64,000 bases of DNA, taken from assembly GCA_000092065.1 (NCBI GenBank), contig CP000586.1. One strand, given 5' to 3'. Source of the DNA: Ostreococcus lucimarinus (taxonomy: Eukaryota). The notes beneath the pieces were generated by a model. That model was not told the DNA's origin. It did not search any database and saw nothing but the letters and a program-made list of their open reading frames with translations. This document shows positions 1-11,514 of the stretch, piece after piece; the first letter of the stretch is position 1, and the number at the start of each line of letters is the position of its first letter. A program made the translations under genes and the position numbers.

Positions 1-1020
1 GACGCCCGCGGTCGCAGTATCTGTGTAAGTAGTGCGGACGTGCAAGTACGTAAACGCGCAGATGGGCCAGAATTTGTCGCCCGACTTGTAGTAGAGGTTG
101 ATGGCAGACCAGTCACCGGCCCAATCGGTAGTCGACGTACCGGTGACTTGTGGAAACGTCACTCCTTCGCCGACTTCCTTGATTTTGGCGGTCAGGCGTC
201 CAGCCGGGTCGCCCTCCTTGGTCACGACCCATTGGTTGTTCGCGTTCTTCAAAGAAACTTCGGACAAGTTGTCGAGGTGGCCGTGGCCGGCATCGATGTA
301 CCCGATAGAGTACTCGTTAGATCCGATCGCGAGACGCATAGAATCGGACCCAGTCACACCGGTGTGTACAAAGTTGCCCGTCAAAGCGGTAGCGTCAACC
401 GCGCCCGTGAAAACAGTCGGACACGCGGCTTTCATGTAACCCCTGAGGCCGTAAGTCGACGAAGAACCGTTACTGCGCGCAATGACCTTGATGGTTTGAC
501 TGGGCAAAGTCAAACCAGAATCAGCCGCGATATCCGCATGATTCCAGTTCGTGATCGCGCCGGTAAAAATCTTCGCCACCGTGCACGCGGAGAGCTTCAT
601 TACGCCCGTGCCGACGCCCGGTACGTTGTGGAACAGAGACACGGCGCCGATTTGGAACGGGAGTTGCATGAAAGGAGCCGAAGAATCAGCGGCAAGACCG
701 TAATCGGTGCTCGCGAAATCACCAGCGTTGGCGCTCGCCCAATCAGTCGCACCTTGTCCGGAACCGACCGAGCGGTACGTCATGCGAAGCGTCGAGCCCG
801 CCATCTCTTCGAGCTTGTCCATGGCCAACCAAATCAGCTTGGACGGGTTCGTCGTCCCGGATCCGTGCAGATGAAAGTGTCGGACTTTACCAGAATTTTC
901 CTGCAGGGACTGGTCGGCGAACGCCAGCGGCGCTTGCGCGCAAATCATGGCCAAAACCGCGACCGCGAACCATCGATGACGATGGCGGCGGTGCGATTCG
1001 ATCGTCGTCGTCTTGATCAT
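1..1020 (-). CDS. PstS-like periplasmic-type phosphate-binding protein. 3' (C-terminal) part runs off the window start. N-terminal signal peptide (MIKTTTIESHRRHRHRWFAVAVLAMICAQAPLAFA).
   Basis: Reverse-strand translation reads continuously from the ATG (complement at 1018-1020) to position 1. Its ~80-residue C-terminal stretch (AKIFTGAITNWN ... LYYKSGDKFWPICAFTYLHV) matches the PstS/PBP superfamily by recall. The ORF is absent from the six-frame track because it lacks a stop inside the window. Confidence 0.6.
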   Translation of the reverse strand, partial: MIKTTTIESHRRHRHRWFAVAVLAMICAQAPLAFADQSLQENSGKVRHFHLHGSGTTNPSKLIWLAMDKLEEMAGSTLRMTYRSVGSGQGATDWASANAGDFASTDYGLAADSSAPFMQLPFQIGAVSLFHNVPGVGTGVMKLSACTVAKIFTGAITNWNHADIAADSGLTLPSQTIKVIARSNGSSSTYGLRGYMKAACPTVFTGAVDATALTGNFVHTGVTGSDSMRLAIGSNEYSIGYIDAGHGHLDNLSEVSLKNANNQWVVTKEGDPAGRLTAKIKEVGEGVTFPQVTGTSTTDWAGDWSAINLYYKSGDKFWPICAFTYLHVRTTYTDTATAGV

Positions 1021-1279
1021 TTTTCGAGGTGGAATGTCGCGAGATTCGCGTCGTCGTCGGGAGCGGGAAGTGTTCTTTCGCGCGTCTTCGTTTCAGTCTC
1101 GCCGTTGCACGCGGCGCTGAAATGTGACGCGCGCGGCGTCGCGATTCAGAGCGCCGCTCATTATAATCCCTTTTTCGCCCGTGACCTGTGCTCATGGGGG
1201 CGCCGGTGTAGGTTTCGGTTGTGGTTTCTAGCGGAGCTGTTGTGTCTATTGAGAGGGCTAATGAACTAACGGCGCGATT

Positions 1280-3607
1280 TCACGAGAGTCCGAAATCTTT
1301 GAATCGCCGATTGAAGGCGCTGTAGGACACGGAGCTGCCCGTGCGGCGATGGCCGCTCGCGTTCGAGCGCTTGACGGACGTCGCCGCGCTGACGCCCACG
1401 CTGGGGCGCTCGCCCGCTATGGCGGCGAGCTTGGTGATGCACACGTCGCGGCATCGCTCGAGCGTCGCGCGTGAAGTTGCTTTGTCGAAATCACCGCGCG
1501 CGGAGAGGACGGCGGCGACGCAGTCCAAGCCGGCGTCGGGCCAATTGCCGAGTAAGACGCCGTACTCGTGCACGAAGGCGTCGGGAGAGGCGGCGCAAAC
1601 GAGACCGCGGAGATTTTGCAAACGTGCGATCCTGCCGATGGCTTTGTTCGTCGACATACGAACGGACATGGATTGCGTGAGAGCTCGCTCGTCGGCTTCC
1701 AATCGCGCGGCCGTGTGCGGCGCGACTACGGAGGCTTGCTTTGTGAACAGGATGAATAACAGTTCGATCAAGTACTCGAACAGCGTCTCCGTCACTGAAC
1801 CCGCGACTTCGGCGGTTAGCCAATCTTCGGTATCGCCCAAATAATCCTCCACGGTCGCGAGAAGCGTGGTCATCGACTCACCAGTCGCCCACGGTCCGTC
1901 TACTTTGGAGCCGTAAAATGTGTTCATCACCTCCACCAGCCCTGGGTCGTCTAAGACTTGACGCGAAATCATCCGTCGCGCCTCGGCGTGCACGCGATTA
2001 AACACGTGCATCGCATGATCGAACTCGCGTACCATGACGTCATCCTTCATTCCGAGCGCATCTAAAATTGTCTTTTGTGTCTGCGCCGCCAAACTTCGAC
2101 ACCGGCGCGTGTCGTTGACGCCGGCAACGATGGTTTCAAACGACACCGGTTGCGCGTCGCGCGCTGCGCTGTCGTGCCCACCGCGTGAGGGTGTCCGACA
2201 AGGAACCCCAGAAAGCGTTTCACTGGGCATTCCCAGACGGTCTGCGACGGCGCTCGCATAGTTTGTAATCATCTCCGCGGCGACTCGACCGCATTGACGC
2301 ACGAAGACGTTCGATTGCGTCTCTATGGCGATCATCATCTGATCTGCGATGAGGCGAAAAAAATCCAGGTCACTCGGGTTCCATAGCTTGCCCGATCCAT
2401 CTTCTTTGGGTGGTCTCGACTTCGCCACGCGACAGAGATTATTCGTCCATCCCGAAATTGTGACGCGCAGTCTGTCGCAATACGTCTCGATGACGGTAGA
2501 TAACCCGACGGGATAAGGCAGCGGCGGGCTCTCGTTCGACTCATCGGCGTATTCAACCGAGCACGCGTGCGCGTCGTCGGTGATTTCGATATCTAAACCG
2601 AGAGACTGCATGGCGTTGAAATAGTGCTGCCCCCACTTCACCGTGGCGACCATGTCGCCGTTGGAGGTGTTAGGACTCGAACTTAAACGCGCGAGAAGAT
2701 CGCACACGCCCGCGTGATACGTCGGCGCGACGACAGTTTCAAACACACGCCATTCAGGCGGAAACGCAGGTATGGTGTAATCAAACGTTTCCGCGAGCGA
2801 CACCAAGCTCTCGTCGAGCGCGCCGACGACGTGCTCGATGCTTTCCTTGTCGTCTAAACCGCTGAACCCTTCGGCGATTAACGCCAGTCGAGCCTCGACG
2901 GCGATCGACATTTGCTCGAGAACCTTCGTCTTCCACCGCTTCGGCTCTGGCGGCGCGACATTGATGACTTTATTCGTCGCCGCGTCCAATTCCGGCTCAA
3001 ACGTCAGCGCGTCTCGCTCAAACTCCTCGTCCAGCACCTCTTGCTCCGCCACCACGCGCACGGCTCGCACGAGCCCGACCGACCCCGACTCCCCCGCTAA
3101 TATCCCTTGCCGAACGCTGTTCCACAGCACCCCCTCAAACGTCGTCCACGCCGCGTCCACGCGCTCGAACTCGTCGTCGTCGAACACCCCGCGTTTCCGT
3201 TCCCCTACCCTCGCCAGCGCCGCGCGCACCGCGCACAGATCCACCTCCAGCGTCGTCAACGTCTCCCACGTCTCGAACATTCTCGTCTCATCCCGCTCGA
3301 GCGCGTCGATCGCGCGCGTCGCCCGCGCGCCCGGCTCCGACGCCTCGCGCGCGTCCCGAAGCGCCCGCTCCACCTCCGTCAACCCTCCGTCGTCCTCGCG
3401 CGCGCCCTTCCCCTCGCCGTCGCCGCGTCGCCTCGCGAACATCTCCGCGAGCTCTCCCAGCGCATCGCGCGTCTCGCTCGCCGTGTCCCTAAGCTTTCGC
3501 GCGCGCGCCACGCCGTCCTCGATGATTTTCAACCGTTCGCGCAAGCGCGCGCGTCGCGCCTCCAGCGTCTTCGTCGCGCGCGCGCGCGCGCCGTCGTCGC
3601 CGCGCAT
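1280..3607 (-). CDS. Exocyst complex component Sec6/EXOC3 (CATCHR tethering family).
   Basis: 775-aa ORF. Segments PPEPKRWKTKVLEQMSIAVEARL and LVSLAETFDYTIPAFPPEWRVFETVV align by recall to human EXOC3 PPGRPKNWKEKMFTILERTV and CFPPHYEIFKNLL. N-terminal coiled coil and the length also fit Sec6. Confidence 0.65.
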   Translation of the reverse strand: MRGDDGARARATKTLEARRARLRERLKIIEDGVARARKLRDTASETRDALGELAEMFARRRGDGEGKGAREDDGGLTEVERALRDAREASEPGARATRAIDALERDETRMFETWETLTTLEVDLCAVRAALARVGERKRGVFDDDEFERVDAAWTTFEGVLWNSVRQGILAGESGSVGLVRAVRVVAEQEVLDEEFERDALTFEPELDAATNKVINVAPPEPKRWKTKVLEQMSIAVEARLALIAEGFSGLDDKESIEHVVGALDESLVSLAETFDYTIPAFPPEWRVFETVVAPTYHAGVCDLLARLSSSPNTSNGDMVATVKWGQHYFNAMQSLGLDIEITDDAHACSVEYADESNESPPLPYPVGLSTVIETYCDRLRVTISGWTNNLCRVAKSRPPKEDGSGKLWNPSDLDFFRLIADQMMIAIETQSNVFVRQCGRVAAEMITNYASAVADRLGMPSETLSGVPCRTPSRGGHDSAARDAQPVSFETIVAGVNDTRRCRSLAAQTQKTILDALGMKDDVMVREFDHAMHVFNRVHAEARRMISRQVLDDPGLVEVMNTFYGSKVDGPWATGESMTTLLATVEDYLGDTEDWLTAEVAGSVTETLFEYLIELLFILFTKQASVVAPHTAARLEADERALTQSMSVRMSTNKAIGRIARLQNLRGLVCAASPDAFVHEYGVLLGNWPDAGLDCVAAVLSARGDFDKATSRATLERCRDVCITKLAAIAGERPSVGVSAATSVKRSNASGHRRTGSSVSYSAFNRRFKDFGLS

Positions 3608-3857
3608 GTCGACTCACGCGCGCGCTCGGCGCATCGCGCGCGCGTCGCGCGCGCGACGTCGTGTGCCGCGCGCGATGCGCCGCGCGCGCGCGTCGAGACG
3701 ATCGGCGTCGGCACTACGCGTCGCGCCGACGCGTCGCGCCGCGGCTCGCGTCGCGGCTCGACGACGACGCGCCGCGTCCCGCGCGCGCGCGCGCGGGCGA
3801 ACGCGCGCGCGCGCGACGCGCGCGAGGGCGCGCTCGAGCGCCAGCGCTGGCGCGGAC

Positions 3858-6800
3858 ATGGCGCGGTCGACGGCGTCGCCGCGCGGCGACGCGGTCGCGG
3901 CGCGCGCGGGCGGCGCGGGCGCGCGGGGAGGTCGCGACCGCGCGACGCGCGCGCGCGGCGGCGCGCGATGCGCGGCGCGACGGACGCGGCGACGCGCGAG
4001 CGCGGTGAAGGTTGGATCTTTGAAGCGCGACGACGACGCGCGCGACGACGAAGACGCGAGCGGACGCGCGCGAACGACGCGCGCGGCGGAGGAAACGAGC
4101 GAGGAGACGTCGACGTCGGAAGACGCGACGACGGGGGAAACGACGAGCGGCTCGGCGAAGATGATCGTCGATAGCGGGGAGGTGGTGGACGAGCGGGACG
4201 GCGCGGGCGGGACGGTGCGGTTGCGTCGACAGCCGAAGGCGGAGGAGTCGACGACGCCGGGAGGGACGGTTCGTAAGAAGGTTGATCCGTCGCGAGGGGT
4301 TCGACCGGGGTTTAAGCGGTCGTACGCGCGAGAGGCGTTGCAGAGAGTCCGTCGGGACGCGGCGGACGCGCTGGACAACATGCGAGCGAGCCGAGACGAC
4401 GCGGGGGCGTCGTCGTCGAAGGCTTCCGTCGGCGGTGATGACGAATTGTCTCGAGCGAAAGTGGCTGGCGAAGCCATGGCGCTCGCGAAAGTCACCGCCG
4501 ACGCGCTCAGAGGAACCGGACCGATCACGATGGAAGAGTGGAGCTCGGCGATGTCCACGGCGTTGTCCGCGGTGTGGCGCGAACTCTGGTATCGATGGAG
4601 TTCTGTTTTGCGACGTTCGGCGTCTTGGGCGCTCGCAATTTCAGCCGTGATCTCCGCGGCGTTTCATTACATCGTCGGCCCGGCGTTCGTCAGTCCGAGA
4701 CTTCCCATGATCGGCGACATCGCGAGTTCGGCGGTCGGGCGTCCCGTGCGCGTCGGGAGATGCAAGAGTCTGTCTTTCATGGGTGTTCTCGGTTTCGGCA
4801 AAGTCTTGGAGGTTGGTCCCGTAGTTCTCGGCCCGTCGGATACAGAGAAGAGCATAGTCGAAATAGACTCGCTGAAGATTTCTTACGACGTACTCCGTTC
4901 TATTTTGAGGAGAAAGTTGGTCACCGAGGTGCGCCTGGAGGGCGTCAACGCGACGCTTCGTCAAGGCGCAAACAACTCTTGGTTTGGGTATCCAGAAGAT
5001 ACAAAACCGCTGAGCTCGCGTCCTACGCTCAACCTCGCACCGAGCTCGAAGAATTCAAAGAAGAAGCAAGGCGCACCATCGGTCGAACTGAGAGTTGTTC
5101 GTCTCGACCGAGGCAACGCTAAATTGCACATCACCGGCGATCCAGAGCCGCGGAGATTGAACAATCTTCAAGGAAAAGCGGTGATTAACCACGTGGGTAG
5201 AGTCGAACTGGACCTGAACATGACGCCCGACACGAGACAAACGCCACCCACGAAGCGTCCGACGACTATGCTCGCCGATAGCCCCGTGATGAATTTGCGA
5301 ACGGAGCAAACTCCCGCCATGTCGCGATCTTTGGAGACGGAGATTCAAAGAGGTTCGAATGGTGGGCAGATTCGTGTGTTTGCGACGCTTTCACCGCCAC
5401 AGCAGCGAGGTTTTCGAACTCGGGATTGGCCAGATTTAAAAGTTCGAGCGCAACTTAACAACACGAGCGCCGCCGTTCTCGAGCGCGTCATTCCGAATTT
5501 ACCGATCGACGTGCGTGGCGGGCGTTTGGATGGCGAAGTTCGGCTCATGTGTAACAGTCAAGCGACGTGGACCTTCCCTGATTTTGTCGGCCAACTCAAG
5601 GGTAAACATCTGTGGTTTCACTTCTTTGATTCCACCGATGACTTTGCGGACACCGACGTTGATTTGGTCTTTGAAGGCCAGCGAATGTACATACACGGCG
5701 GCGAGGGACACTTCGGGCATGTTCCGCTTACCATCACGGGCGATCTCGACTTGAACTCGCTTGGTGGTGAATATCGCCTCAGCGCTCAGGTGAGCCCCGT
5801 GGAGATACATGATTTGCGAGAGACGCTGGGCGTGCGTCCTTTGCCTCGTCCGGTGGCAGGAAGTGTGAAGGGCTTTTTGTACTGCTCGGGACCGTTGGAT
5901 TCGCCAGTGTTCACCGGCAGAGCGGAGACCACAGATCCGACTTTAGCGGATTTGAGTAAGGCGAAACCTGGAACGGAGATGGCTTGGAGCGAAGAAGCTG
6001 TCAAGGGCGCCGTGGGCGAAGGTGCAGTCGCGGCGTACGACCGCGTTCCCTTCAAGTCTGCTAACGCAGTATTCACCGCGAATGTTAAAAAAGGCGAGTT
6101 CTCGCTTCACAGCGCTGAGGCGATTCCAGTGGATGGTGGAAAGTTGCGAGGTTCCGGCCGAATTTCGATCAAGCCTGATGCGTTGTTCGACCCTAACGCG
6201 TGCGATGTTGAAGGTACTGGTGTCGATCTCGACTTTCTTAAAATAGCCAAAAGATTGTCCCGAGACGAAGAACTGCCGTGGCTCGATCGCGTGTGCCCGT
6301 CCTCGCCGGCAAACGTGTCAGGAACGTTTGTTGGCGCGTTGTCAGAGCCAATCCTCAACGCCAATTTTACGGTCGAAGATGATGAGTACAAAGGACACTT
6401 GACAATGACACGAGATGGAGTGATGACAAACATTGAAACCCCGGTGCTCGAGATGAAAGCGTCGATCGCGACGAAATTTCAGCCCTTGGAGGAGCAACTC
6501 AAGGCGACGACGGTTGAACAAGCCATCGCACTCGGCAAACCAAAGGTGACTGACGCAGAAGCTGATCTCATGCTGAACGGCGCTGATGTTGCCGCGTGGA
6601 TGAATGAAATAGATGCGGCGGATGCGCCTGATCGTCTCCGTCTCCGCCTCGGGGGGCGCACGCGGGTTAAGGGCAAGTTTGCGCAACCGCGTAACGAGGA
6701 CGGCGAGGAGGTTGAAGACGCGTTGCCAACGTTTTCGGGGCACATGCAACTAGATAATTTACGAGTGAACAAATTAGAATTCGCTCCTAAAATGGCTGGA

Positions 6801-9800
6801 AAGCTCACGGTATCGGAGTCAGGCCTAAAGTTGCGCGCGAAGAACCGCGGTGACGAGCTCTTCGATATGTCTGTAGAAAGCGGAGGCAAGTCCATGGTGC
6901 AAATCCGTCGCAACAATTTGAAAATTTCTGCCGACGTCGATGATTTTGCGGGGAGCTTTGACGTCGCGGGTCTGTTGCTCGACGACTTAGAGTTTGCATC
7001 ATTACGTGGCAAAGTAGAAGCGGCGAGTGCAAAAATTGATTTGCGTGATCGCGTCGGTGTTGGCAGCCTGCAGTTGAAGCAGCCACGTCTGAGTGGTATT
7101 TCGGGGGATTCACTGGAGGCCGACGTCACGTGGGCGGATCGCGTCGTCAGTCTTCAACGCGCGACGTTGAAGCAGGCGAAGTCGCAATACGATGCCGACG
7201 GAGACTATGCCTTGCCGGATGATATCTGGAACTCTTTGCCGAGCGAACGCGTCGTAGTTGAGGTGGAAGAAGTTTCAGAAGTTGAAGAAGTCCTCCTGCC
7301 GGCGCCAGTCGATGACGGCGTCGCGCAGTCGTCGCTGCCGGAAGACGTGCAAGTGATCGAAATCGTTCCGAAAGACGCCAAAAATAATACTGAGACGATC
7401 GTTGGTAAGCGAGTGAGATTTCCTCGTCCAGCGATTTTGGACAAAGTTGGTAATTCCGTAAAGAGTCTCGCCAAAAAACTCGACGCTTTGCGGAAACCGG
7501 CTACCACGACCACCGGCGAAAACACTCGTTCGGGTGCCGATGTTGTGGCTACCGAGCCCGTCGAGCCCGTTTCGAAGAAAGATGGAGTGCCCGAACCGAT
7601 CATCGCACGAGCGACGAAGGATGTTGAGCAGCTCGAAACTGGCACAGACACGGACAGCGAAGGGACTGACGTGGACAAGCCTTCGAGCGCGTCGACTGAG
7701 ATCAAAAACGTTGAAAGCGTCGCCGACGCCGCCGCCGTTGCTGAGACTGTTGCTGAGCAGACGAGTGAAAGCGAGAAAGAAACCTCTCTGATGGAGCCCG
7801 TGTTAGTCGCCGGGGAAGCGGAAGTAGCCCAAAAAGCGAAACCGAACGCCGCGGCGAACGCAGTTCGCGGCGTGTTGCGGTCGGCTCGTAACGTCGTCAA
7901 ATCAAACAAAGTCAACGAGAAAGAGAAGGATGAAAAATCTCGTATCACGCTTTCATCTTACGAGAACGAGTTTAATTCGGACGTTTCTGGTGCGTGGCGC
8001 TTCCGACTCGCGGTGCCTGAGGCAGATATTGAAGAGATGCTTCCAGTTCTTCGTGTCCTTACGGATTTGCGAAAAGGGGCGACGCCCGAAGAGTATGGCC
8101 GAGCCAAGCAAGCGTTCCTCGAAGGTGTCGAAAAAACGGGATACGCGATCGTCGACTTGGCGAGGCAAGTTGATGAAGTTACGACGAAGCAAAAGAGCGA
8201 AGCTCCAGTCGCCGAGTCAGCTACGTCGACGGACGACACGAAGGAAGTTAGTGAGACGACGAAGACATTGCCCGGTTTACAAGATTTGAAGGGTGGTTGG
8301 CACGGTATGATTCAAGCCACCGGCGGCGGCGCTTTGGAGACGTTTGATTCGCCGCAACCGACGGAAACCGTCCTTTTCGACGTTGCCGGTAGCGATTGGC
8401 AATGGGGACCTTACAAAGTTGAACGCGTCGAAGCTCAAGGCGAAGCGAGTTCGAGCGAAGGCGTCAAGTTGACGAGCTTAGAAGTGTCTTCGGACGCCGC
8501 GAGTCTTTCCGTGTCGGGCGCTATCGGTGGTTCTCGTCAAGACGCGACGTTTGCCGTCAGAGACCTCCCAGCGCCCTTACTCGGCGCATTTGTTGGGCCG
8601 CTCATGCCCGAGCAAGACTTGAGCGACTTCCCACGAATAGGTGGCGATTTCCTCGTGCAAGGTCATTTGGGCGGTTCGGTGACGGCGCCCGAGGGCGAGT
8701 TCCTGATGAGACTTCGAGACGGCAAGATCGGTAATGTCAAGCTGAAGAGCGCCGAGTTGAGTGCGGAGTTGAACGAAGCTCGCCGTGCAGAGTTTGAGGG
8801 CGAGGCGGTGCCAGCTGTAGGTTCTGGTCTCGTGCGCATAGCGGGCGTCGTACCGCTTCCGGAAGCGAACGATCAGTCTCTCGCCGTCGACTGGCGTGTG
8901 CGAGAGCACGGCATGACGCTGCTCACGGCATTCGTCCCAGAAGTCGCCGAATGGCAGAGTGGATCGGCCGATATGTCGTTGCACGTCAGAGGTACGCCTG
9001 CGGCGCCTGTTTACGATGGCGTCATGGAAATAAGAAAGGCACGGATCTTGTCTCCTTTGCTCGCCCGCCCGATTTATCCGGCCAATGCGACTCTGCGCAT
9101 CCAGCGCAACACACTTTACGTCGACGACATCGAAGCAAAGAGCGCCAAGGGCGTAGTGCGAATCAAAGGAGCCATGCCGTTGTTGAAGCCAAGCCGCAGC
9201 TCCGGTGGCGAGACGTGGGAAGGTCTCGTAGCTCGCGCAGACACGCAAGGAGGCGTAAAGATGACGATCGACGGCCTCGATGTCCGCGCAAGAAATGTGT
9301 ACAACGGACAGCTGAACGCCGCTATGGTGGCGAAGGGAACTGTCACGGCCCCGGAACTTAGCGGAGATGTGCGATTCTCGAGAGGTACCGCGTTCGTGCA
9401 GCAGCAGCCACCGAACGCGGACGAAATGCTCAATCAAACGAAGTCTGGCGCGTTGTCGGGGGCGAAGAGAGATTCGCGCGGAGTGCTGGCTGGGATTTTA
9501 GAGCGAGCCGCGAGAGCAAATGATCCGAACCACGGCGAAGCGGGCAATCAGACTGAAAATGAACTCATGAACGAGAAGAATCTCGAAAAGTTGCAGAATT
9601 TGCGCTTACGAGGCCTTCATCTTTCTGTCGGACCTGAGATGTCTGTCGTTTACCCGTTTGTGTTGAACTTTGGCGTCAGCGGCGAACTCACGCTCGATGG
9701 CGTGATTGATGCAGGCCTTTTACGACCGAACGGCTCGCTTCTGTTCGATCGCGGTGACGTCAACTTGGTGGCGACACAAATCAGACTCGATCGAGACCAC

Positions 9801-10400
9801 CCGAACAGAATTGTGTTCACACCAGAGCAAGGACTCGACCCCTACGTCGACATTTCCTTCCTCGGCACGGATCTTCGAGCTCTCATACAAGGCCCGGCTT
9901 CAAGGTGGACGGACAGCCTCACGTTAACGTCTTCTGCGCAGACTACTCCCGGCGAAGGTGACGCGACGCTGTCTCCAAGTGAAGCCGCTCGCATTTTCGA
10001 AGGTCAGCTGGTGGAATCGCTCCTCGAACAAGACGGAAAAATCGCCTTTAGCAACTTGGCGTCGACGACGTTGGCGTCGCTCATGCCAAAGATTGAGGCC
10101 GGTGGCAACGTCGGCAAGGCGCGCTGGAGATTGACCGCGGCGCCATCGTTGCCGGGTTTGCTTTCACTCGACCCTGACTTGGATCCGTTCAGCAACACTG
10201 GATCGTTTACCCTCGGCTCCGAAGCGGAGATTTCATTCGGCGATTCGTTGCAAGCGACGTTGAGTCGCAACCTCGACGCCGACGAAATGCGTACGGAGCT
10301 GTCGCTCATGTACAAACTTACCAGTAAGCTCCGAATGCAGTTAAAGAGCCTGTCGGCGTCGGCGACGAGAGTGATGTTCGAATTCAGCACGAAAGATTAA
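3858..10400 (+). CDS. TIC236/TamB-like large envelope protein with C-terminal DUF490 (translocation and assembly module B homologue), probably chloroplast inner envelope.
   Basis: ORF 2838-10400. The first ~1 kb is Arg/Ala/Ser low-complexity and overlaps the Sec6 gene on the other strand. The real start is probably the in-frame ATG at 3858 (MARSTASPRGDAV... transit-peptide-like), followed by a TM helix (LAISAVISAAFHYIVGPAF). The C-terminal ~350 aa (RLRGLHLSVGPEMSVVYPFVLNFGVSGELTLDG ... DRGDVNLVATQIRLDRDHPNRIVFTP) is typical of TamB/DUF490. Confidence 0.6.
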   Translation: MARSTASPRGDAVAARAGGAGARGGRDRATRARGGARCAARRTRRRASAVKVGSLKRDDDARDDEDASGRARTTRAAEETSEETSTSEDATTGETTSGSAKMIVDSGEVVDERDGAGGTVRLRRQPKAEESTTPGGTVRKKVDPSRGVRPGFKRSYAREALQRVRRDAADALDNMRASRDDAGASSSKASVGGDDELSRAKVAGEAMALAKVTADALRGTGPITMEEWSSAMSTALSAVWRELWYRWSSVLRRSASWALAISAVISAAFHYIVGPAFVSPRLPMIGDIASSAVGRPVRVGRCKSLSFMGVLGFGKVLEVGPVVLGPSDTEKSIVEIDSLKISYDVLRSILRRKLVTEVRLEGVNATLRQGANNSWFGYPEDTKPLSSRPTLNLAPSSKNSKKKQGAPSVELRVVRLDRGNAKLHITGDPEPRRLNNLQGKAVINHVGRVELDLNMTPDTRQTPPTKRPTTMLADSPVMNLRTEQTPAMSRSLETEIQRGSNGGQIRVFATLSPPQQRGFRTRDWPDLKVRAQLNNTSAAVLERVIPNLPIDVRGGRLDGEVRLMCNSQATWTFPDFVGQLKGKHLWFHFFDSTDDFADTDVDLVFEGQRMYIHGGEGHFGHVPLTITGDLDLNSLGGEYRLSAQVSPVEIHDLRETLGVRPLPRPVAGSVKGFLYCSGPLDSPVFTGRAETTDPTLADLSKAKPGTEMAWSEEAVKGAVGEGAVAAYDRVPFKSANAVFTANVKKGEFSLHSAEAIPVDGGKLRGSGRISIKPDALFDPNACDVEGTGVDLDFLKIAKRLSRDEELPWLDRVCPSSPANVSGTFVGALSEPILNANFTVEDDEYKGHLTMTRDGVMTNIETPVLEMKASIATKFQPLEEQLKATTVEQAIALGKPKVTDAEADLMLNGADVAAWMNEIDAADAPDRLRLRLGGRTRVKGKFAQPRNEDGEEVEDALPTFSGHMQLDNLRVNKLEFAPKMAGKLTVSESGLKLRAKNRGDELFDMSVESGGKSMVQIRRNNLKISADVDDFAGSFDVAGLLLDDLEFASLRGKVEAASAKIDLRDRVGVGSLQLKQPRLSGISGDSLEADVTWADRVVSLQRATLKQAKSQYDADGDYALPDDIWNSLPSERVVVEVEEVSEVEEVLLPAPVDDGVAQSSLPEDVQVIEIVPKDAKNNTETIVGKRVRFPRPAILDKVGNSVKSLAKKLDALRKPATTTTGENTRSGADVVATEPVEPVSKKDGVPEPIIARATKDVEQLETGTDTDSEGTDVDKPSSASTEIKNVESVADAAAVAETVAEQTSESEKETSLMEPVLVAGEAEVAQKAKPNAAANAVRGVLRSARNVVKSNKVNEKEKDEKSRITLSSYENEFNSDVSGAWRFRLAVPEADIEEMLPVLRVLTDLRKGATPEEYGRAKQAFLEGVEKTGYAIVDLARQVDEVTTKQKSEAPVAESATSTDDTKEVSETTKTLPGLQDLKGGWHGMIQATGGGALETFDSPQPTETVLFDVAGSDWQWGPYKVERVEAQGEASSSEGVKLTSLEVSSDAASLSVSGAIGGSRQDATFAVRDLPAPLLGAFVGPLMPEQDLSDFPRIGGDFLVQGHLGGSVTAPEGEFLMRLRDGKIGNVKLKSAELSAELNEARRAEFEGEAVPAVGSGLVRIAGVVPLPEANDQSLAVDWRVREHGMTLLTAFVPEVAEWQSGSADMSLHVRGTPAAPVYDGVMEIRKARILSPLLARPIYPANATLRIQRNTLYVDDIEAKSAKGVVRIKGAMPLLKPSRSSGGETWEGLVARADTQGGVKMTIDGLDVRARNVYNGQLNAAMVAKGTVTAPELSGDVRFSRGTAFVQQQPPNADEMLNQTKSGALSGAKRDSRGVLAGILERAARANDPNHGEAGNQTENELMNEKNLEKLQNLRLRGLHLSVGPEMSVVYPFVLNFGVSGELTLDGVIDAGLLRPNGSLLFDRGDVNLVATQIRLDRDHPNRIVFTPEQGLDPYVDISFLGTDLRALIQGPASRWTDSLTLTSSAQTTPGEGDATLSPSEAARIFEGQLVESLLEQDGKIAFSNLASTTLASLMPKIEAGGNVGKARWRLTAAPSLPGLLSLDPDLDPFSNTGSFTLGSEAEISFGDSLQATLSRNLDADEMRTELSLMYKLTSKLRMQLKSLSASATRVMFEFSTKD

Positions 10401-10434
10401 TTCACATTGTAATTTTACACGCGTTGCTGCCGCG

Positions 10435-11514
10435 CTAAGGAGCTAACGAGCGTACGCATCCGAGCGCCCGCTCGTCTCGCATCCAGAAAGATTCCCCTAA
10501 AAGTGCACCGTTCGCGGCGTAAATATGAGGACATCCCTCTGTTGCGGCCGAATCGAAACGTACGGCGCGTACGACGCCGCGCGCGACGTCGGACGGATCG
10601 CGCATCAGACGCAAAGCCTTCGCGCCGAGGCGATAAAACGCCTGAAGCGCCGTCGGCCAGTCTCTAATCAAGCGCGTGTCCACCAGACCTGGATCCACTA
10701 AAACGGCCGAGGCGCCACCATCGCCCGACTTCGTCCACTCACGATGCTTCGCCGCGGCGTACGCGCTAATCGCGACTTTGCTCCACATGTAGTCGATCGC
10801 CGGGTTGTAATATCGCCCACCCTCGCCGCCCGTTTTCACCCATCGTCGAAACGCGTCCACGCCCAGCAACCGAGCCGTCGCGCACTGATGCACGAAGGAT
10901 CCGACGAAAACCACCCGCATGCGCGCGCTGGTCTTTCCCGCGCGTCGTGCTTCGTCCACCAGTCTATCCGTCAACCGCACGACGTTTCGAAAATTCACCC
11001 GCGCCGTCGGACTCCCGTCGCCGCGAGACGCCGCGTTCCTATCCGTATTAAACACCGCCGCGCAGTGCACCACCGCGCGCACGTCCACGCCGCGCCGACG
11101 TATCTCACTCAACGACACCTTCATCACGTCTCGCTCGCTTCCCACGTCCAACGGCCCGACTAACTCGACCCTCGAATCCTTCGCCGCGCGTCGACACTCT
11201 CGCGCGAACGCGTTCGCCGCGTCCACCCCTCCCAACCTATACGGCACCACGATCGCGAACCCTTCCTTCGCCAGCGCGAGCGCGCTCGCGCGTCCGATCC
11301 CAGAGCTCCATCCCGTGACGAACACGCCGACGTCCAGCGTCCCGTCTTCTTCGTCTTCTTCGTCTTCGTCTTCGTCTTCGTCGCCTCGCGTCGTTCGCCT
11401 CGCGTCGACGCCGCGCGCGTCCTCGACCGCCCTCGCCACCGTCGCGCGCGCCATCACGCGCGCCAGCGCGAGCACCCAATCGAGCATCACGCACAGCACG
11501 TCCGGGCGCCACAT
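10435..11514 (-). CDS. Short-chain dehydrogenase/reductase (SDR family).
   Basis: Rossmann motif VFVTGWSSGIGRA (TGxxxGxG) and catalytic YAAAK (YxxxK). ORF 10435-12063 is trimmed to the ATG at 11514 because the upstream poly-Thr/Arg part overlaps the divergent TrpRS gene. The start could be 11487 or 11454. Confidence 0.65.
   Translation of the reverse strand: MWRPDVLCVMLDWVLALARVMARATVARAVEDARGVDARRTTRGDEDEDEDEEDEEDGTLDVGVFVTGWSSGIGRASALALAKEGFAIVVPYRLGGVDAANAFARECRRAAKDSRVELVGPLDVGSERDVMKVSLSEIRRRGVDVRAVVHCAAVFNTDRNAASRGDGSPTARVNFRNVVRLTDRLVDEARRAGKTSARMRVVFVGSFVHQCATARLLGVDAFRRWVKTGGEGGRYYNPAIDYMWSKVAISAYAAAKHREWTKSGDGGASAVLVDPGLVDTRLIRDWPTALQAFYRLGAKALRLMRDPSDVARGVVRAVRFDSAATEGCPHIYAANGALLGESFWMRDERALGCVRSLAP

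Follow-up and report, generated by a model that had tools for sequence, protein, structure and literature searches.

Phosphate limits growth across large areas of the ocean, and in eukaryotic phytoplankton transcripts of pstS, more and more used as a sign of phosphorus stress, are taken to report a bacterial-style, high-affinity ATP-binding cassette (ABC) importer. The closest described proteins are the bacterial PstS subunits of PstSCAB, such as those of E. coli (1IXH, 2ABH), Xanthomonas citri (8ODS) and Yersinia (2Z22). Here we describe a PstS-like gene located at one edge of a 64,000 nucleotide (nt) stretch of Ostreococcus lucimarinus DNA (contig CP000586.1; this whole stretch is referred to below as the window). 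Its product has the fold, Pfam family and phosphate ligands of bacterial PstS at approximately 24% identity, but adds a predicted eukaryotic signal peptide, a helical stalk and a C-terminal transmembrane (TM) anchor. Further differences are insertions at amino acids (aa) 196-222 and 270-317, the lack of pstCAB in the window and the hypervariability of the equivalents of the surfaces by which bacterial PstS docks. The gene, its family and its responsiveness to phosphorus are already known, and the identification itself is ordinary. Three features seem undescribed so far and provide leads for follow-up: an anchored and apparently permease-less architecture, mosaic loop variability within the species and a gene-specific 5' hairpin. 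Our literature search found no mention of a membrane anchor or of a lack of PstCAB in eukaryotic PstS, and no population-genomic report of pstS variability.

Genes named pstS in algae belong to the same family as the O. lucimarinus gene. These include Chlamydomonas PSTS (Cre01.g044300, placed here by its name and not by a comparison of architecture), which is induced by PSR1, the genes of Pterosperma and diatoms, and metatranscriptome matches to KEGG K02040. Pterosperma, which contributes P0105 to the family, upregulates pstS under nutrient limitation (PMC11217555). Diatom PstS genes have been catalogued as prokaryote-derived genes with signal peptides (PMC3237598), and eukaryotic and diatom pstS serves as a marker of phosphorus stress (bioRxiv 2025.04.09.648040). 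In the Baltic summer, at dissolved inorganic phosphorus concentrations of <0.3 uM, chlorophyte pstS makes up 92% of transporter-category transcripts (PMC13086504).

On the minus strand of the window, 340 stop-free codons extend from an ATG at 1018-1020 through position 1, with the open reading frame (ORF) still open at the window edge (1..1020). These are the first 340 of 496 codons, the other 156 lying beyond the edge. The full-length gene was recovered from a database protein match, P0001 (496 aa), which is 100% identical across the 340 aa encoded in the window; the contig that carries it (L001) shows 0 mismatches to window 1..11020. Residues 25-496 of P0001 are identical (472/472) to XP_001418467.1 (ABO96760.1) of O. 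lucimarinus CCE9901, a protein labelled "ABC(binding protein) family transporter: phosphate" in RefSeq. These identities show that the window comes from the O. lucimarinus nuclear genome and that the PstS-like gene is already annotated. The RefSeq model begins at Met25, with the loss of the basic n-region of the signal peptide (window 949-1020, minus strand). It looks truncated by 24 N-terminal residues because the longer N-terminus of P0001 is conserved in relatives (P0002-P0025) and because the ATG at 1018-1020 is the first one downstream of a conserved upstream block (described below). A 96% identical copy on an 823,818 bp Joint Genome Institute contig (P0014, 412 aa) loses the frame after approximately aa 280 and ends early, which may reflect a frameshift error or a disrupted allele of another strain.

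A first-pass annotation, made from the letters of the window and translations of its ORFs, had assigned the partial product to the PstS family, and profile searches, structural searches and the conservation of the binding pocket all agree with it. The Pfam model PF12849 (PBP_like_2) matches the protein well above its cutoff (E-value: 2.5e-23; 83.6 bits against 27). The best NCBIfam model is PstS TIGR00975 (E-value: 3.9e-34), although the score falls below the equivalog cutoff of that model, and NF008171 reaches 72 bits against a cutoff of 339. The protein is a homologue, and not an equivalog, of bacterial PstS. When the PDB was searched by sequence, all significant matches were PstS proteins. 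Following a Foldseek search of the PDB with an AlphaFold model, the top 48 matches were all phosphate-binding proteins, the best being 8ODS (E-value: 1.6e-24, TM-score 0.83). TM-scores of the PstS matches were 0.80-0.84 (normalised to the target), and the matches comprised PstS of Xanthomonas, Yersinia, E. coli, Burkholderia, Mycobacterium tuberculosis and cyanophages, followed by PhoX and DING/HPBP. The first-pass annotation had named reassignment to a sulfate- or molybdate-binding family as an outcome that would overturn it; no sulfate (Sbp/CysP) or molybdate (ModA) binder was found in the Pfam and NCBIfam results or among the top 48 structural matches. The DING proteins (PfluDING 4F1U, HPBP 2V3Q) are PstS-superfamily phosphate binders reported from eukaryotes, but their structural matches to the model (E-values of 1e-13 to 1e-15, TM-scores of 0.57-0.63) are below those of classical PstS. 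DING is soluble, approximately 375 aa (~40 kDa) in length and without a TM anchor, and the DINGG(G) N-terminal motif is absent from the O. lucimarinus sequence.

In E. coli phosphate-binding protein, Asp56 takes a proton from phosphate and keeps sulfate out. This residue corresponds in the alignment to Asp106 of the algal protein (window 703..705; this and the following positions are on the minus strand), which is invariant among the 28 diverse family members over which pocket conservation was scored. The phosphate ligand Thr10 corresponds to Thr57 (850..852), inside the invariant motif HGSGTTNPSK, the backbone contact F11 to Asn58, and the ligand Ser38 to the invariant Ser87 (760..762). The E. 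coli ligand stretch R135-A-D137-G-S139-G140-T141 aligns with R182-S-N-G-S186-S187-S188 (457..477), such that R182 is equivalent to R135, S186 to S139, S187 to G140 (a backbone contact) and S188 to T141; R182, G185, S186 and S187 are invariant and S188 is nearly so. The ligand positions T57, N58, S87, D106, R182, S186, S187 and S188 are therefore all invariant or nearly invariant in the 28 members. Among the invariant residues, N58, K61, R83 and H246 are family-specific and have no E. coli counterpart. The last of these, His246, lies in the motif GYIDAGHGH (P0001 aa 240-248; 277-303), which includes the sequence AGHGH. It aligns beside E. coli PstS Ala197, a cleft-rim position that is exploited in the MDCC phosphate biosensor.

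In a hydropathy scan of P0001, two segments and no others are hydrophobic, namely aa 17-35 and aa 457-486. The first of these belongs to an N-terminal region (aa 1-35; 916..1020, minus strand) that is predicted to be a secretory signal peptide, as had been proposed from the window alone, from its basic n-region (RRHRHR), its hydrophobic core (aa 17-35) and the sequence AFA|DQ, where cleavage is predicted. The AlphaFold model, for which 28 family members were used (predicted local distance difference test score, pLDDT, 80.8 overall; predicted TM-score 0.76), contains a confident PstS domain at aa 48-393, with a pLDDT mostly >90 over aa 60-390. The part of this domain encoded in the window, for which Pfam and Foldseek give further evidence, is aa 48-340 (1..879, minus strand), and the domain continues to approximately aa 393. 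In the model it is followed by a helix at aa 419-447 and a TM helix at aa 453-485. The first helix carries hydrophobic residues at heptad positions a and d (F427, I431, L434, V438, L441 and L445) and is preceded in the 28-member alignment by a conserved KRxxYxxYE motif. Beyond the TM helix is a cytosolic tail of approximately 14 residues that contains no signalling domain and varies in both length and sequence between species. A pair of cysteines, Cys146 and Cys200, is conserved in the 28 members, which fits an extracytosolic location of the domain. The architecture is thus that of an N-terminal signal peptide, a PstS domain, a helical stalk and a C-terminal TM helix. The description of the gene as bacterial-type obscures what chiefly sets it apart, the eukaryote-specific stalk and anchor.

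The same architecture recurs, with elaborations, throughout a large family. A profile search retrieved 10,048 clusters at an E-value of ≤1e-3 and 1,207 at ≤1e-30; the best 150 all score >335 bits. The eukaryote-type family comprises at least 150 clusters (at 50% identity), with members in prasinophytes, Pterosperma, the diatoms Proboscia, Pseudictyota and Stephanocyclus, Aureococcus, Volvox, Mesostigma and the amoebozoan Rhizamoeba. The view that eukaryotic PstS is uncommon was thus mistaken for algae: the family has these many members, the O. lucimarinus gene is annotated in RefSeq, and a comparative study records one to four PstS copies in each of its 21 picoeukaryote genomes (PMC11409870). 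The members from Pterosperma, diatoms, Aureococcus, Volvox and Mesostigma have motifs in common with the O. lucimarinus protein and, where complete, a C-terminal hydrophobic anchor, and an anchor of this kind is close to universal among full-length homologues. Among 142 family representatives, one C-terminal TM segment was found in 101, none in 37 and two in 4; none was polytopic and none was fused to a permease. In O. lucimarinus there is one domain with a very short tail; other members have tandem domains, long Pro/Ala-rich tails or additional N-terminal domains. Tandem arrays of two to six PstS modules are found in many members, nearly always with one terminal TM segment, in proteins of up to 2,699 aa (examples from P0174-P0315 include a three-copy protein of Mesostigma viride and a 1,402 aa protein of Volvox africanus). 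Other members carry an N-terminal Kelch propeller (including that of Rhizamoeba), a folate-receptor-family domain, or Fea1 and Somatomedin B domains. In every case the fusion partners are extracellular-type ligand-binding modules; in P0290, for example, a Fea1 domain is fused to a PstS module.

The first-pass annotation had also noted that PstS is known from marine phages. Phage PstS does exist, but the link to this gene is weak. The cyanophage proteins (Syn19 7XG7, P-SSM2 7XG8) have the fold and a general role in phosphate scavenging in common with it, but they are soluble, approximately 300 aa in length and partner host PstCAB, unlike the anchored algal protein. A tblastn search of 50,697 phage genomes recovered only distant PstS genes (<60% identity), of which the best 15, all from cyanophages, are 25-27% identical. 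Alignment scores are higher for proteobacterial PstS (91 bits for Xanthomonas and 71 bits for E. coli) than for cyanophage PstS (32 bits). Scans for the family signature motifs HGSGTTNPS and IGYIDAGHG found no viral copy of the eukaryote-type family in IMG/VR, and no prokaryotic relative in 185,579 GTDB species genomes, a pattern scan that more distant relatives may escape. Separately, structural comparison with BFVD identified several Pandoravirus and megavirus proteins (A0A0B5JBP5, A0A4D6EHX4, A0A2U7U9Y4, A0A0B5J011 and A0A2K9V9A7) with a binding-protein-like ectodomain related to the model (E-values of 1e-16 to 5e-20, 15-20% identity). Several of these are annotated as Ser/Thr kinases or receptor Ser/Thr kinases, which suggests that receptor kinases with binding-protein ectodomains exist in giant viruses or their amoebal hosts.

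Variability of the gene within the species was assessed using three metagenomic contigs, each from a different sample (L006, L007 and L009), that run colinear with the reference over 6-11 kb. In the neighbouring genes, few sites differ from the reference: 0.0-0.28% in TamB, 0.13-0.64% in Sec6, 0.41% in SF3b10 and 0.0-0.57% in Symplekin. Intergenic DNA differs at 0.4-1.2% of sites, with one stretch at 4.6%. In the PstS gene, 13-14% of sites differ, and this divergence is limited to discrete segments in which nucleotide identity falls to 50-68%. In a set of 34 close homologues, the segments at aa 38-52, 88-100, 196-222, 270-317 and 366-414 occur as 9, 2, 4, 3 and 3 classes, respectively. These classes are reshuffled into 27 combinations among the 34 proteins (metagenome assembly may create false ones), while the pocket, stalk and TM helix are invariant. 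Four of the segments lie within the window, all on the minus strand. Segment A (aa 38-52; 865..909), at the mature N-terminus, has nine classes among the 34 proteins and differs by 7 nonsynonymous to 0 synonymous changes. Segment B (aa 88-100; 721..759) has a ratio of 6.5 to 0.5; it and segment C (aa 196-222; 355..435) align with parts of the docking face of E. coli PstS (see below). Segment D (aa 270-317; 70..213) is an insertion relative to bacterial PstS. Two of its classes are only 51% identical to each other; one is 69-71% identical to the orthologue of another species and the other is 60% identical to the orthologue of a third. Because each is closer to the orthologue of a different species than to the other class, the segment D classes appear to be either old (trans-specific) or introgressed.

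Between alleles, the ratio of nonsynonymous to synonymous substitution rates (dN/dS) is 0.97-1.18 across the gene as a whole and 1.17-1.35 for the variable segments, inside which the alignment is uncertain; dS is 0.30-0.37 in these segments and 0.03-0.05 in the rest of the gene. A second pair of close relatives shows a similar trend, with Sec6 90% identical and PstS 65% identical. It is a robust result that deeply divergent classes exist where the surrounding sequence is otherwise identical. The divergent homologues P0056, P0076 and P0084 were considered as paralogues that might donate sequence by gene conversion and were rejected, as all three are located at the same syntenic locus. Diversifying or balancing selection on an exposed surface protein would be expected to produce a pattern of this kind. 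The variability marks the PstS-like protein as a probable target of surface interactions in an alga without known virus receptors; a role in virus attachment is speculation. As variability within the species is very large, use of a single-allele reference for read mapping or marker quantification would lead to under-counting of pstS.

On balance, and with moderate confidence, we favour the explanation that this protein is a surface-tethered phosphate-capture receptor that functions independently of PstCAB. It would be a type I single-pass membrane protein, in which a cleavable signal peptide takes the PstS "Venus flytrap" domain across the endoplasmic reticulum membrane, so that the domain would end outside the cell or on the lumenal face of an endomembrane compartment. 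The tether would consist of the short amphipathic, heptad-spaced helical stalk and the C-terminal TM helix, with the approximately 14 terminal residues in the cytosol. The domain would most likely bind orthophosphate tightly and specifically because the complete phosphate-coordinating set is kept, including the sulfate-excluding Asp. Scarce phosphate might in this way be concentrated at the surface of a naked picoalga, and then either be passed to secondary transporters (of the PHO4, PiT or SLC34 type) or be taken in as the receptor is internalised, in the manner of phytotransferrin with iron. Independence from an ABC permease is inferred from three observations: there are no PstC, PstA or PstB genes nearby, there are no permease fusions, and the surfaces equivalent to those that dock with PstA and PstC are hypervariable. 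Affinity for phosphate, location at the surface and the hand-off step are likewise predictions of this model.

Phytotransferrin (ISIP2a/FEA1) is a functional analogue only. It resembles the PstS-like protein in its association with nutrient stress, its signal peptide, its ligand-binding ectodomain and its C-terminal TM anchor, but it is not homologous to the PstS domain in either sequence or fold, and Fea1 (PF07692) gave no match to the O. lucimarinus protein in the Pfam search. Uptake by endocytosis is established for ISIP2a; for the PstS-like protein it would be purely hypothetical. If the protein is indeed a tethered receptor without PstCAB, then pstS transcripts do not report an ABC importer as assumed, and how picoeukaryotes obtain nanomolar phosphate is still to be found.

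Several points weigh against this explanation. The score of the protein against TIGR00975 is 118 bits, where the equivalog cutoff is 205. Two ligand-loop residues are replaced: D137, which in E. coli forms a salt link with R135, has become Asn in the O. lucimarinus protein, and T141 has changed conservatively to Ser, so affinity and specificity could differ. The signal peptide and topology were called from hydropathy and the AlphaFold model, and the equivalence of E. coli residues 39-50 to aa 88-100, and of 149-174 to aa 196-222, comes from alignment only, at approximately 24% identity. The "orphan" status of the protein is provisional, as it rests on the 64 kb window and six syntenic loci. 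The P1BS element recognized by PHR1/PSR1 (GNATATNC) was absent from all four of the orthologous upstream regions examined. Finally, the literature search found no measurement of binding, localisation or uptake for any eukaryotic PstS, and no report of P-starvation expression for the Ostreococcus gene.

It is unlikely, in our view, that the protein is an ordinary subunit of a PstSCAB-type ABC importer whose membrane and ATPase genes are located elsewhere in the nucleus, and which acts at either the plasma membrane or the plastid envelope. The SulP/Sabc/Sbp sulfate system of the Chlamydomonas chloroplast is a model for the plastid-envelope version of such an importer. Databases and papers use the ABC name for these proteins, and anchored binding proteins normally partner ABC importers in Gram-positive bacteria and archaea. 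Those proteins share a membrane tether with the algal protein; they are lipid- or TM-anchored and have a cognate ABC permease in the same operon, whereas the algal protein has a C-terminal TM helix and no identified permease. The first-pass annotation had proposed a search for a neighbouring permease or a fusion to a transporter. No permease or ABC gene, including PstC, PstA and PstB, was found in the 64 kb window or at six syntenic orthologous loci, and, as described above, permease fusions are absent from the family. The N-terminus has the features of a secretory signal peptide and not of a green-algal transit peptide, and the accessible part of the supplement to the 21-genome inventory lists PstS, pho4 and PiT but no pstA, pstB or pstC (PMC11409870).

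The docking surfaces also bear on this alternative. In the cryo-EM structure of E. coli PstSCAB, PstS contacts PstA through D21, K30-Q34, K43/T44 and T49, with a crosslink at N48, and PstC through R134, G138, P169, K175 and R186, with a crosslink at K167 (PMC12976172). Segment B aligns with E. coli 39-50, which includes PstA contacts, and segment C aligns with E. coli 149-174, which includes the PstC-contact region K167/P169. Some contact positions in the algal protein are kept or conservatively replaced (D21 is D68, K30 is R79 and N48 is N98), as would be expected of an importer subunit. However, the segments at aa 88-100 and aa 196-222 are hypervariable within one species and contain large insertions in other species, which, as far as an alignment at approximately 24% identity can place the surfaces, is hard to square with a conserved docking partner.

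A role as a sensor of external phosphate, in which the ectodomain closes on its ligand and the stalk and TM helix relay this closure to a co-receptor in control of the P-starvation response, seems similarly improbable. Bacterial PstS participates in Pho signalling, an ectodomain of related structure occurs in the giant-virus proteins with a receptor Ser/Thr kinase annotation, and the heptad stalk could mediate dimerisation. On the other hand, the tail is only approximately 14 residues long, has no signalling domain and is not conserved between species, while arrays of up to six binding modules in related proteins suggest capture capacity and abundant transcripts at low phosphate are more typical of an acquisition protein.

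More doubtful still is the possibility that the protein binds another ligand, such as phosphite, arsenate, pyrophosphate or polyphosphate, a phosphoester or a metal-phosphate complex. The score under the PstS equivalog cutoff, the replacement of D137 by Asn and the family-specific residues N58, K61, R83 and H246 (the last at the cleft rim) would be compatible with a changed specificity, but all seven side-chain or backbone phosphate ligands are kept, including the sulfate-excluding Asp, and the top 48 structural matches are all orthophosphate binders.

Although a prokaryotic-type domain at a window edge might point to a bacterial contaminant, a contig-edge assembly chimera or a very recent horizontal transfer, the chance of this is negligible, as an independent assembly is identical throughout the gene and on either side of it, gene order is conserved around orthologues, GC content and GC at third codon positions (GC3) are like those of the neighbours, and no relative was found by signature motif in 185,579 prokaryotic species genomes. 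The nuclear context that had been proposed from the window is equally clear. The upstream neighbour is Sec6 (1280-3607, minus strand; E-value: 2.4e-111), the GC content and GC3 of the PstS gene are 0.576 and 0.70 (GC3 of other window genes: 0.58-0.82), and other genes in the window are eukaryotic housekeeping genes, including those for Sec62, a MutS-type protein, APC1, a TFIIB-type protein, CCB1, RCC1, SacI and aminoacyl-tRNA synthetases. The order TamB-Sec6-PstS-SF3b10-Symplekin is kept around orthologues in which PstS is only 47-59% identical. Based on the eukaryotic neighbours, the matching GC and GC3 and the conserved gene order, contamination, chimerism and recent transfer are excluded.

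The DNA upstream of the gene holds a further conserved feature. In a block of approximately 40 nt (1090..1129, minus strand), located 70-110 nt 5' of the ATG, an invariant CGTCACAT that may be an initiator precedes a predicted hairpin (1090-1123, minus strand) with a 7 bp lower stem, an AGA bulge, a 5 bp upper stem and a 7 nt loop. The block is found upstream of pstS in all orthologous loci examined (including L002-L004 and L010-L016), at 70-190 nt from the ATG, and stays with pstS where an extra gene parts pstS from Sec6. It is unique in the window, and all six exact-pattern matches in metagenomes lie 110-160 nt upstream of a pstS-family gene. These two results led us to reject, at this stringency, the idea of a regulon-wide motif.

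Seven distinct variants of the block fit one 12-pair hairpin with 91.7% of cells paired, a value reached by 0 of 500 shuffles. There are three covarying pairs (13 of 500 shuffles) and two G-U wobbles; slid-register controls are 23-37% paired and show no covariation. Each variant folds alike alone, with modest z-scores of -0.4 to -2.8, and an Rfam search with the hairpin gave no credible match. As only seven related sequences are involved, the covariation is moderate evidence for the hairpin. A TATA-like box, GGGATTATAATG on the gene strand (1159..1170, minus strand), whose function is inferred, lies approximately 38 nt upstream of the invariant TCACAT, and similar AT-rich boxes occur in orthologues. 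Because of this spacing, and because TCACAT fits the initiator consensus, the hairpin may lie at the very 5' end of the mRNA, in a cap-proximal position of the 5' untranslated region, where it might have a regulatory role. Tentatively, and with less confidence than we place in the receptor model itself, the protein can be pictured as a free-standing surface phosphate receptor, and not an ABC-transporter subunit, that is drawn into a biotic arms race by its exposure on a wall-less cell (for example, over attachment of prasinoviruses or recognition by other antagonists at the surface). Wild Ostreococcus populations would then keep ancient, recombining loop cassettes around an invariant pocket, and the 5' hairpin would add post-transcriptional control.

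The gene model of P0076 starts approximately 135 nt too far 5' (L013 225-360; L012 upstream of 430) and reads through the hairpin; the true start is likely the ATG at L013 360 (MAAGKSDRRRR...). In one Ostreococcus-like lineage, an additional gene of approximately 360 aa is located between Sec6 and pstS (L004 8267-9352 and L015 6309-7388, both minus strand). This gene has no Pfam match and is not present in other lineages. On the opposite strand of the window, a mechanically called ORF of 2,520 aa (2838-10400, plus strand) encodes the TamB-domain protein, which is called as 2,180 aa in L001. The first ~340 codons of the longer ORF are probably noncoding, as they overlap Sec6 on the opposite strand.

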